A stretch of DNA of 64,000 bases, from positions 43,896,001-43,960,000 of the forward strand of contig OX597822.1 in the NCBI GenBank assembly GCA_951406725.2, in the 5' to 3' direction. Position 1 is the first letter of the stretch; every line of letters starts with the position of its first letter. Source of the DNA: Octopus vulgaris (Eukaryota). Both the position numbers and the translations under genes were made by a program. Of the stretch, positions 4,264 to 62,800 are shown piece after piece. The notes below the pieces were generated by a model. That model saw only the letters and a list, made by a program, of their open reading frames with translations. It was not told the origin of the DNA and did not search any database.

Positions 4264-5505
4264 TTCTCATACAAGGGGTTTTGCCGTGTATTTACAGTTT
4301 CTTTTCAGTGTAGTATATTTGAAAACACGGTGTCTCACAGAGAAAGACATTGCACTGCTCACACAGTGTTTCGATCCGATCAGTACCACTTCCTGTCTAA
4401 CTGGGGTCAATAGCGTACTTTTATCTTTGTAAATATGTTGTTTTTTTATACAAATACACGCACACGCTCACACGGACGGATATGCTCTATGCAGAGTGGG
4501 GTTAAAAATTTAAATTACAATTTTTGTTGTTTTTTTTGCTTGCTGCTTAAATTCCAGCAATGGTCCATCGCATCATTATTCCATAACATATGTTTACAGG
4601 GAGTAAAATATTGAAAACCGTCAACACATATCAGAGAGAGAGAGGGGGGGAGAGAGACAAAGAAACAGGGTAGGCCGTGGGATGTGCGAGAAACAACAGC
4701 TAAATCTCCCTTAAATCACACTCCTTTTTGTATGAAAATTATTTTGAAATTATAACCAGAATGAAATTGCAGATTCGAACTGTCCATATTTTAAAACTAT
4801 GATTAAAATTAAATTCGGAAAGAATGCGAAATTTGGGGATTTATGAAGAGGTGGAATTACTGAAAAATTGTTAAAGATTCCAATATTGTATTTAAATTAC
4901 GTTTCAATTTCTGTTTAAAAATAAAGAAGTGGTGATTATAATGGTGAACTCGGAATTCCAAATTTCATTTCTTTTCTTTCTAAACTTCAAGGCTTCTATC
5001 GTTTTTAAGTGCGTAGTGCAGAAAGAAAGAAATTAAAATTAAATGGCCGAAATCGGTAGTGAGTGGTTGAGCAGGGTGAGAAAATTTGCTAAATTTTCAA
5101 TTTTCTTTTTTTCTTTTTAACTGAAAGACGTCTGTCATTGTTTCTAAATGTGTTATGCAGAAATAAAAAAAAAATGGAGGAAAATGGATAAAATCGGTCA
5201 GGAAGGTGAGATTCATACATTTTCAAATTATTTCTCCCATAACTGCTTCCTTACAGTGAGTTGGTGAAAAAAATTGAAACATGCTCGTCAAAACCGAAAA
5301 TCCAGCTTATGAGAATGTGCAATTCCAAAAGCCCGGTAAGACATTTTATTGTTCAAATTACCCGACAACGACAGAATCTTAGCTATGCACGCGCGTGTGT
5401 ATACATACATAGTATTTTACTCAAGAACACAGTGCACCGTACAGTCAGGGAATCGAACCTACAATCTAGCGATTGATAGTGCAGTAGCTTAGCCAATTGG
5501 CCACG

Positions 5506-9960: not shown

Positions 9961-10515
9961 AGGAGAAAGAGTGAGAGAAAGTTGTGGAGAAAGAATTCAA
10001 CAGAGTTCGCCCGGTCTGGAAATCGAAACCGCCATCCTATGACCGCGAGTCCGCTACCCTAACCACTCGGTCATTGAGCCTCCACGCACTCGTTCACAAG
10101 CATACTTACTCACGGACAAAAAATACACTCCCACACACACGTTCACACACGCACAAACACACACAGGAAGAAAGAATGAGAAAAAGTTGTGCGCCCGGTC
10201 TGGGTGCGCCCGGTCTGGGAATCGAAACCGCGAGTCCGCTGCCCTAACCACTCGGCCATTGCGCCTCCACGCACACGTTCGCAAGCATACATACGCACAA
10301 AAAAAATACGCTCTCACGTCCACACACGCACTAACACATACACGCACACACATGAAGAAAGAATGAGAAAAAGCTGTGGAGAAGGAGTACAGCAGGGTTC
10401 GGCCGATCTGGGAATCGAAACCACGATCCTACGGATACGAGTAGGCTACGCTAACCACTCGGCCATTGCGCCTCCACGCACACGTTCACAAGCATACTTA
10501 CTTACGCACAAAAAT
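9961..10515 (-). repeat. Three tandem ~190-bp units, each an internally deleted SINE C head plus flank
   Basis: Units start near 9961, 10165 and 10353 and share GGAATCGAAACC...CCACTCGGCCATTGCGCCTCCACGCACACGTTC.CAAGCATAC. Confidence 0.85.
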
Positions 10516-10686
10516 ACACACACACACACACACATACACACACACACACACACACACCATAAAACACATGTACAATGAAATTAATAAAATACCTTAACAG
10601 ACTATAATTAATATTTCACTTTCCCAATTAGTATTATCACAGTTTATGCCATTGTTCTTTCAATGTCACATTTTGTTCTCGCGCGC

Positions 10687-14344: not shown

Positions 14345-14828
14345 AAACAGATGAAAGGCGAAGTCAACCTCGGCAGAATTTGAACGCAGAACGTGAAGGC
14401 AGACGAAATACCTATTTCTTTACTACCCACAAGGGGCTAAACACAGAGAGGACATCAAGGAAATACAAACGGATTAAGTCTCTTATATCGACCCCAGTGC
14501 ATAACTGGTACTTAATTTATCGACCCCGAAAGGATGAAAGGCAAAGTCGACCTCGGCGGAATTTGAACTCAGAACGTAGCGTCAGACGAAATACCTATTT
14601 TTTATTACCCACAAGGGGCTAAACATAGAGGGGACAAACAAGAACAGACATAGGTATTAAGTCGATTACATCGACTCCAGTGCGTAACTGGTACTCATTT
14701 AATCGACCCCGAAAGGATGAAAGGCAAAGTCGACCTCGGCGGAATTTGAACTCAGAACGTAGCGTCAGACGAAATACCGTTAAGCGTTTTTCCCCGGTGT
14801 GCTGACGACTCTGCCAGCTCGCCACCTT
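14345..14828 (-). mobile_element. SINE family B head-to-tail trimer
   Basis: Three copies of GATGAAAGGC.AAGTC.ACCTCGGC.GAATTTGAAC at ~185-bp spacing. Confidence 0.88.
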
Positions 14829-21499: not shown

Positions 21500-21788
21500 G
21501 CATGTATATATACATATAGATGTAAGTATGAACATATATGTATGTATATATGCATATATTTTATTTATTTATTATATTGTTATTATATGACCGAACGCAC
21601 GCGTTGTTTCTCTACTCCAAATAAGTTTATATATATATATATATATATTACGGAGATGTACTCGCATAGCAAGTGATTTGATCTGAGATCGTGTGCTGAA
21701 ACGAAAATAATTTCAGCGTGGAAGGTGTTTGTAAGCCATTTAAGAAACACAAAAAAGCCGTTCGATTCACTTCAACATTTAAGTTTAA

Positions 21789-21838
21789 TTTGTCAAAATA
21801 TTTTCGTCGCTAAAATCCGCGACCTGTTCACTGACAAA
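21789..21838 (-). ncRNA. Minimal type I hammerhead ribozyme with swapped G3:C8 core
   Basis: TTTGTCA-GTGAACA-G-GTCGC-ggatttta-GCGAC-GAAA-ATAT-TT-TGACAAA: perfect 7-bp stem I, 5-bp stem II and palindromic stem III (AATATT). Confidence 0.75.
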
Positions 21839-22051
21839 AGTCCGTGCTGCATCTGATGGTATCCTTACGGATAATAATAGCAGAAACTGAATCAGTACAT
21901 GGATAAGTATTGTATTTCGTATATTTTCACTTGTTTATTGCTTGGGTTTGTGTTGAGTTTGATTTGAGAACATAATCTTTTGTGGAGAATGGCGATTTGA
22001 CGTCTATATCTAGCATGTTGACTGTCCACTTTTCGTGTTCAGTCCTTAATT

Positions 22052-22103
<52 letters not shown>

Positions 22104-62616: not shown

Positions 62617-62800
62617 TACAGTTCTATATTTAAGAGATGAGGAATTATATATATATTATTTACATTTGACGGATATTTGTCCACATCTTGTTTGTTGTTA
62701 ACACAACGTTTCAGCTGATATACTCTCCAGCCTTTATCAGGTGTCTTGGGGGAAATTTCGAACCTAGGTTCTCATTCGTAAGGTATTTTTCGTCGTCGTT
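62617..62800 (-). mobile_element. Hammerhead-bearing tail (same family as 23343..23490) with complete 3' terminus
   Basis: GACAC-CTGATAA-A-GGCTG...CAGCT-GAAA-CG-TT-GTGTT, with terminus ...CTCATCTCTTAAATATAGAACTG. Confidence 0.75.

Follow-up and report, generated by a model that had tools for sequence, protein, structure and literature searches.

The DNA analysed here is a 64,000-nucleotide stretch of the Octopus vulgaris genome (contig OX597822.1, positions 43,896,001 to 43,960,000 of the forward strand; hereafter the window). At 21649..21854, its minus strand carries a solo copy of the pseudo-long terminal repeat (pLTR) of a Penelope-like element (PLE), a retrotransposon. The repeat is ~205 nt long, begins with a hammerhead ribozyme motif (21789..21838), and ends in a (TA)n run. 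Its genomic copies are 97-98% identical, and the same segment flanks the full-length elements L152 and L153. In the core of the motif, G3-C8 takes the place of C3-G8. This pair is the standard throughout the family, which comprises ~6,000 copies of one Penelope-type element, and not a peculiarity of a mutant copy.

Architecture of the G3-C8 hammerhead motif

Read from 21838 to 21789, the 50 bases of the minus strand are TTTGTCA GTGAACA G GTCGC GGATTTTA GCGAC GAAA ATATT T TGACAAA. Residues are numbered by the hammerhead convention, and family letters are our own. Stem I (7 bp) is formed by the 5' arm TTTGTCA (21832..21838) and the 3' arm TGACAAA (21789..21795). The core G3-U4-G5-A6-A7-C8-A9 occupies 21825..21831, with G3 at 21831 and C8 at 21826, and is followed by an extra G at 21824 between A9 and G10.1. 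Stem II (5 bp, GTCGC/GCGAC, 21806..21823) closes an 8-nt loop and is predicted with pair probabilities of 0.97-0.99. G12, A13, A14, and A15.1 lead into the palindromic stem III (AATATT, in RNA AAUAUU, from A15.1 to U16.1; together 21797..21805). U17 comes next, and by the numbering the cleavage site would lie directly after it, between 21796 and 21795.

Stems I, II, and III follow each other in hammerhead order around a three-way junction, stem III being available solely as an intermolecular palindrome. U4, G5, A6, A9, G12, A13, A14, the A15.1-U16.1 pair, and H17 are all in place. The literal consensus of C3 plus G8 is absent, the family consensus being G3 and C8. Nevertheless, positions 3 and 8 are Watson-Crick complementary (G-C here, C-G in homologous families), and a tertiary pair between them is predicted. 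The palindromic stem III and the additional base after A9 are both traits of minimal PLE hammerheads. The motif is genuine, and the reading given in a preliminary description of this DNA, with paired stems I and II and a palindromic AATATT on the minus strand, is confirmed. That description had counted only two core deviations; the extra G after A9 is a third. The opposite strand was rejected as a ribozyme, as the core there would read CUGUUCA and does not fit.

In the hammerhead, the best-studied small ribozyme, the general acid owes its position to the 3:8 pair. A structure-aware scan of the window with this pair left free returned two matches under relaxed settings, the motif at 21789..21838 and, at 62740, a decayed one. 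At the stringency of the motif (stem I at least 7, stem II at least 5), 150 dinucleotide-shuffled windows yielded one match, and none with a Watson-Crick 3:8 pair. Between 21700 and 21950, no hammerhead family of Rfam matched by covariance model at E<=10; the matches that the Rfam scan did return were microsatellite-driven miRNA matches and chance matches, and were discarded. The expectation that CUGANGA-based searches would miss the motif holds. Within an identical framework, homologous families have C3-G8.

The second match, at 62740 on the minus strand, is a minimal hammerhead-like copy with C3·A8, and the canonical form of that motif occurs in L036. Further canonical minimal motifs lie in L002, L006, L023, L014, L017, and L190.

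A family standard within a Penelope-like element

Copy numbers were taken over the source genome (2.8 Gb). With positions 3 and 8 free, the motif has 1,876 exact matches, and G3-C8 is present in 98 of the first 100 listed. When the loop is freed as well, G3 occurs in 5,935 matches and another base in 254; among the first 100 with G3, 96 also show C8. These counts reject a single decayed copy and bear out the proposal that G3-C8 is a family variant. In contigs of four runs (four organism codes), which are repeat contigs and not independent tests of function, no alternative letter reaches >=5% at G3 or C8, and loop II varies. Likewise, no letter from U4 to A9 changes at >=5% in the four runs, and G12 shows a change at 5.5-5.8% in two.

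The pair also extends into more divergent subfamilies. A second subfamily keeps G3-C8 at a median downstream identity of 84% (20 of 21 copies clearly homologous), and an old subfamily keeps it at 65% (13 of 26). Among the 26 old copies, chosen with position 8 free, C8 is found in 22 (T in 3, A in 1). G3 is present in 21 of the 26, a ratio that is not a population figure because the sample combines a list of G3 matches with one of matches lacking G3. In the old subfamily N7 and loop II have changed, stem I reads GTGTCA/TGACAC by its commonest letters (by eye), and ATTT after GAAA, giving the shorter palindrome AAUU, is the commonest form of stem III (12 of 26). Changes in stem I, loop II, and the palindromic stem III have thus left G3-C8 in place. 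U4, G5, A6, A9, and GAAA were fixed by the search patterns, so their conservation in the old copies is partly ascertained. No open reading frame (ORF) was found within ~1.5-3.8 kb of 20 old-subfamily copies; consequently, this subfamily was left out of the endonuclease tree discussed below.

The assignment to a Penelope-like element, also made in the preliminary description, is upheld by the position of this minimal type I motif in both terminal repeats of an element encoding a reverse transcriptase (RT) and a GIY-YIG endonuclease (EN). In L153, the motifs at 4720 and 8981, 4,261 nt apart, flank the RT-EN ORF, and L152 is organized likewise. Longer copies extend upstream through a microsatellite-rich 3' untranslated region (UTR) into an ORF that ends in a CX3CX2C linker, as seen in the sequence, followed by the GIY-YIG domain. 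In L154, the frame is unbroken over 1,025 aa, and Pfam places GIY-YIG at 915-1005 (E 1.8e-5, above cut-off). No Pfam RT family matched this 1,025-aa frame; the RT motifs were read by eye, and the homologues are named RT-domain proteins. A single ORF with RT and C-terminal GIY-YIG is the trait of EN+ PLEs. No solved-structure match was found for the element protein. Pseudo-LTRs, an inverted 5'-truncated arm, and a tail are all present, the tail measuring ~58 nt against 30-40 nt in print. The head-to-head inverted arms, the (TA)n targets, and the tail, reflected in two 3' end points ~58 nt apart, fit the PLE anatomy described in PMC8557442 and PMC3846280.

Within the copy in the window, the segment 21650..21739 (minus strand) contains the first ~30 codons of the PLE ORF, starting with the ATG at 21739, together with both points at which reverse transcription starts and the ~58-nt tail; the frame is that of the L152 ORF. 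A likely transcription start lies at 21854..21856 (minus strand), where A 21854 stands in an initiator-like TC-A-GAT context. In an unbiased set, 21 of 37 arms begin within -2..+3 of this A. Moreover, 21 of 30 free 5' ends carry a G immediately before the start A, against 0 of 19 copies extending into the 3' UTR, which points to a copied cap and to a start site at 21854. This pattern suggests that solo repeats derive from capped transcripts of an internal promoter. G3 would then lie about 22-23 nt and the predicted cut ~58 nt behind the capped start. The ORF begins at +115, which places the motif in the leader. A candidate leader intron (GT +84, AG +158) was dropped: the frame is open from the ATG at +115, and the N-terminus resembles by eye that of L314, a sister family.

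Next to the solo repeat, 21858..22054 on the plus strand holds a 3' end, truncated on its 5' side and 99% identical, of a second repeat family. Of a canonical hammerhead it retains only the 3' half (21858-21902). The whole motif of this family, CTGACGA...GAAA CTGAATCAGT A CATGG, is present in L003, L019, and L020; no ORF was found upstream of the family's copy. Across 21649-22054, the G3-C8 copy and the truncated 3' end of this different hammerhead-bearing family thus stand head to head, both ends running into (TA)n. The arrangement is apparently an inverted insertion built from two different RNAs, and is a single instance among the loci examined. Elsewhere in the window, 10042-10557 and 14350-14778 contain tandem repeats of ~185 and ~183 nt, which look like short interspersed elements.

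Cleavage and its alternatives

Judging from sequence, we put a probability of roughly 55% on the motif being a weak self-cleaving hammerhead of the PLE terminal repeat that is assisted by dimerization or by protein. Transcription would start before G3, with a cap, and the two hammerheads of a tandem transcript could pair through AAUAUU. The RNA would be cut after U17 only if stem III, through its palindrome, pairs with that of a second copy or if the element protein aids folding. Cutting would be slow or late, so that most templates would be copied uncut. Several published results are compatible with such behavior. The exchange C3G/G8C partly rescues the PAc PLE hammerhead, which cuts only with the element's protein (Frangieh, PMC11167929), and in the pairwise scan of Roberts (PMC9901934) no double mutation in the CUGA region other than the C-G to G-C swap gave strong rescue. 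In addition, G3-C8 is less active with C17 (Kalweit and Hammann, PMC3884650), which would fit the U17 of our motif.

A number of observations weigh against assisted cleavage. None of the 37 arms has its 5' end at the predicted cut site. The first 100 of 1,327 matches of a search designed to catch truncations near that site gave no 5'-end peak there either: of 64 arms classed as truncated, a class that includes about eight copies which by eye are just point or indel variants, 4 begin at +1, 1 at -1, and the rest from -9 to +14. The +1 and -1 counts are close to the mean per position, and stem I microhomology explains two of the four +1 arms. Paired genomic copies are mostly head to head, an arrangement that yields no same-strand dimer from those copies. 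The predicted folding is also unfavorable. The motif had been described as perfectly folded, which is true of the isolated sequence; in the whole 200-nt segment, stem II forms at 98% but stem I at only ~6%. The minimum free energy fold (-15.4 kcal/mol for 71 nt) has a z of -1.85 and is equalled by 10 of 200 shuffles, so that folding energy alone is unremarkable. This fold adds a G3·U17 wobble to stem I, which competes with a probability of 0.44-0.51 in short nascent RNAs. The AAUAUU duplex is predicted at just -0.2 kcal/mol, and the palindrome pairing is absent from the predicted cofold of two copies.

In one copy, L407, the stem I 5' arm is joined directly to the 3' arm and the whole core is deleted, as if reverse transcription had skipped over the base of the fold.

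Sister families bear on cleavage from both sides. Their relationship to the G3-C8 family shows in the protein (55% for L314; for fragments, 40-47% and 33%) but not in the downstream DNA, and they share the fold and the extra G. With stem II given as GTCHC/GDGAC, 1,133 matches were obtained, and C3-G8 is present in 74 of the first 100 listed (by eye). At positions 3 and 8, 19 chosen rows show G-C in 9, C-G in 6, U-G in 2, and no pair in 2; a change between G-C and A-U is also seen at one pair of stem II. These rows were picked by patterns fixing stem II and share descent, so that shuffle counts over them do not amount to probabilities. Among 47 metagenome contigs encoding relatives, five have a motif directly behind the ORF, all with a palindromic stem III; four are C3-G8 and one is U3-A8 with C9 (L267:2497-2540). 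In an endonuclease tree of 185 columns, in which 36 of 63 rows have enough cover and inner support is weak, the G3-C8 family forms one supported branch between canonical-core groups, and the four C3-G8 metagenome relatives lie on the far side of this branch. The tree, which takes in no Neptune or Nematis reference proteins, is drawn from its midpoint; an ancestral C3-G8 is the parsimonious inference.

Other sister cores speak against selected activity. In a very young family with many intact ORFs of ~1,310 aa (L157-L186), C9 replaces A9 in each of 13 distinct contexts, and A9C is present in both repeats of L314 (1129-1178, 5717-5766). Older relatives of this family have A9, and an intermediate has C9 and C17. 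In an old family (L093-L121, L187-L216), the 29 matches, two of which belong to other families, comprise U3·G8 in 16, C3·A8 in 7, C3-G8 in 3, and U3-A8 in 3. The U3·G8/C3·A8 split is also seen by eye in copies found through downstream DNA. This family consists of two subfamilies with covarying stem I (TGTCA/TGACA and AGTCA/TGACT), and its copy L119 sits behind a PLE ORF remnant. The clade thus tolerates cores that are expected to be poor.

These cores lend weight to the view that the motif is a catalytically dead descendant kept as structure, be it as a protein-binding or folding signal or as part of an internal promoter and leader, with the 3:8 match kept for shape or simply left over. We regard this as possible but doubtful. 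Besides the uncompensated A9C, U3·G8, and C3·A8 consensus cores, it would account for copies that begin at the likely cap and are uncut, for stem II as the sole helix that is stable in context, and for hammerhead mutants that are without effect on insertion in vitro (PMC11167929). Loss of catalysis would nonetheless leave unexplained why the other core letters are canonical in old and young subfamilies (a regularity partly ascertained by the search patterns) and why stem III is palindromic despite its change in length. The opposite view follows the model in PMC4209133, put forward for PLE hammerheads at large: the motif would be an efficient ribozyme, freeing RNA of unit length or circular form from tandem transcripts. 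It can draw on the tandem terminal repeats of L152 and L153 and on the fully paired stems of the isolated motif. This view is improbable, since there is no 5'-end peak at the site, the cap-like G marks free 5' ends upstream of it, and even the canonical minimal PLE hammerheads of that same study cleave poorly in vitro.

We consider it very improbable that G3 and C8 were neutral changes in a source element that chanced to amplify, with no selection on the motif. Copy number does reflect few source elements and, with both positions free, one third of double changes give a Watson-Crick pair by arithmetic. Against this stand the retention of G3-C8 across subfamilies that differ by ~16% and ~35% downstream, the compensatory stem changes, and the retained palindrome. 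The preliminary description had argued from the compensatory pair to a selected natural variant. The natural family consensus is borne out; the step from there to selected catalysis is weakened, because sister families amplified with uncompensated cores, because the copies bear no trace of cutting, and because a PLE hammerhead is dispensable for insertion in vitro (PMC11167929).

Assisted, weak cleavage can be taken one step further, though tentatively. One PLE clade may have repeatedly retuned its core (G3-C8, A9C, U3·G8, C3·A8) and kept the junction, selection favoring an attenuated, protein-gated ribozyme on account of its position in the leader, a short way downstream of the cap. If so, G3-C8 would be the first natural 3:8 inversion, and the families would form a natural allelic series. 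CUGANGA-based censuses would then overlook thousands of hammerheads in each genome, among them perhaps those of PLE groups reported to be without any.

Relation to known hammerheads and Penelope-like elements

In the literature examined, the known natural 3:8 pairs are C-G and U-A, and G-C appears as a laboratory rescue alone. No published natural G3-C8 hammerhead was found there, a comparison outside which Lunse 2017, Przybilski and Hammann 2007, and Nelson and Uhlenbeck 2008 stand, so that an earlier report is possible; nor was a published cephalopod PLE hammerhead found in that literature. G3-C8, fixed in ~6,000 copies and in old subfamilies, thus extends the natural consensus, and standard descriptors as well as Rfam miss whole hammerhead families. 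The series of canonical and apparently damaged sister cores, some of them very young, bears on whether PLE hammerheads need cutting at all. In this respect, the in vitro work in PMC11167929 reports that PLE hammerhead mutants insert normally, and no RNA ends at the cut site in the experiments it presents.

The closest relatives are the minimal PLE hammerheads of Cervera and de la Pena 2014 (PMC4209133), which are characterized by an extra base, a palindromic stem III, activity that is low even in dimeric form, and a natural U3-A8. Our motif shares with them the type I topology, the location in both pLTRs, the lack of an obvious loop-loop contact, G10.1-C11.1, the extra nucleotide between 9 and 10.1, the palindromic 15.2-16.2, and the occurrence mostly as solo or opposite-strand copies. 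It differs in its extra base, a G where the consensus is H (one example there has G), and in its core pair: among the 56 representatives in Fig S3 of that paper, none has G3-C8, most being C3-G8, with U3-A8 twice and U3·G8 once.

U3-A8 was named as a natural 3:8 covariant by Perreault 2011 (PMC3088659) and also occurs in Schistosoma PLE families (PMC4209133). Like these covariants, our motif combines Watson-Crick covariation at 3:8 with invisibility to the standard descriptor; unlike them, it is a purine-pyrimidine inversion that takes two transversions rather than two transitions. The engineered C3G/G8C mutants of PAc (PMC11167929) and of the pairwise scan (PMC9901934) have the identical 3:8 pair, with partial rescue shown there, whereas here it forms the consensus of a family in the genome and occurs together with U17 and the extra G. 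The host element, finally, resembles the EN+ PLEs of the Neptune/Nematis type (PMC8557442, PMC3846280) in its C-terminal GIY-YIG domain, its CX2-5CxxC linker, its microsatellite targets, and its inverted pLTR with tail, a likeness by features rather than by comparison of reference proteins.
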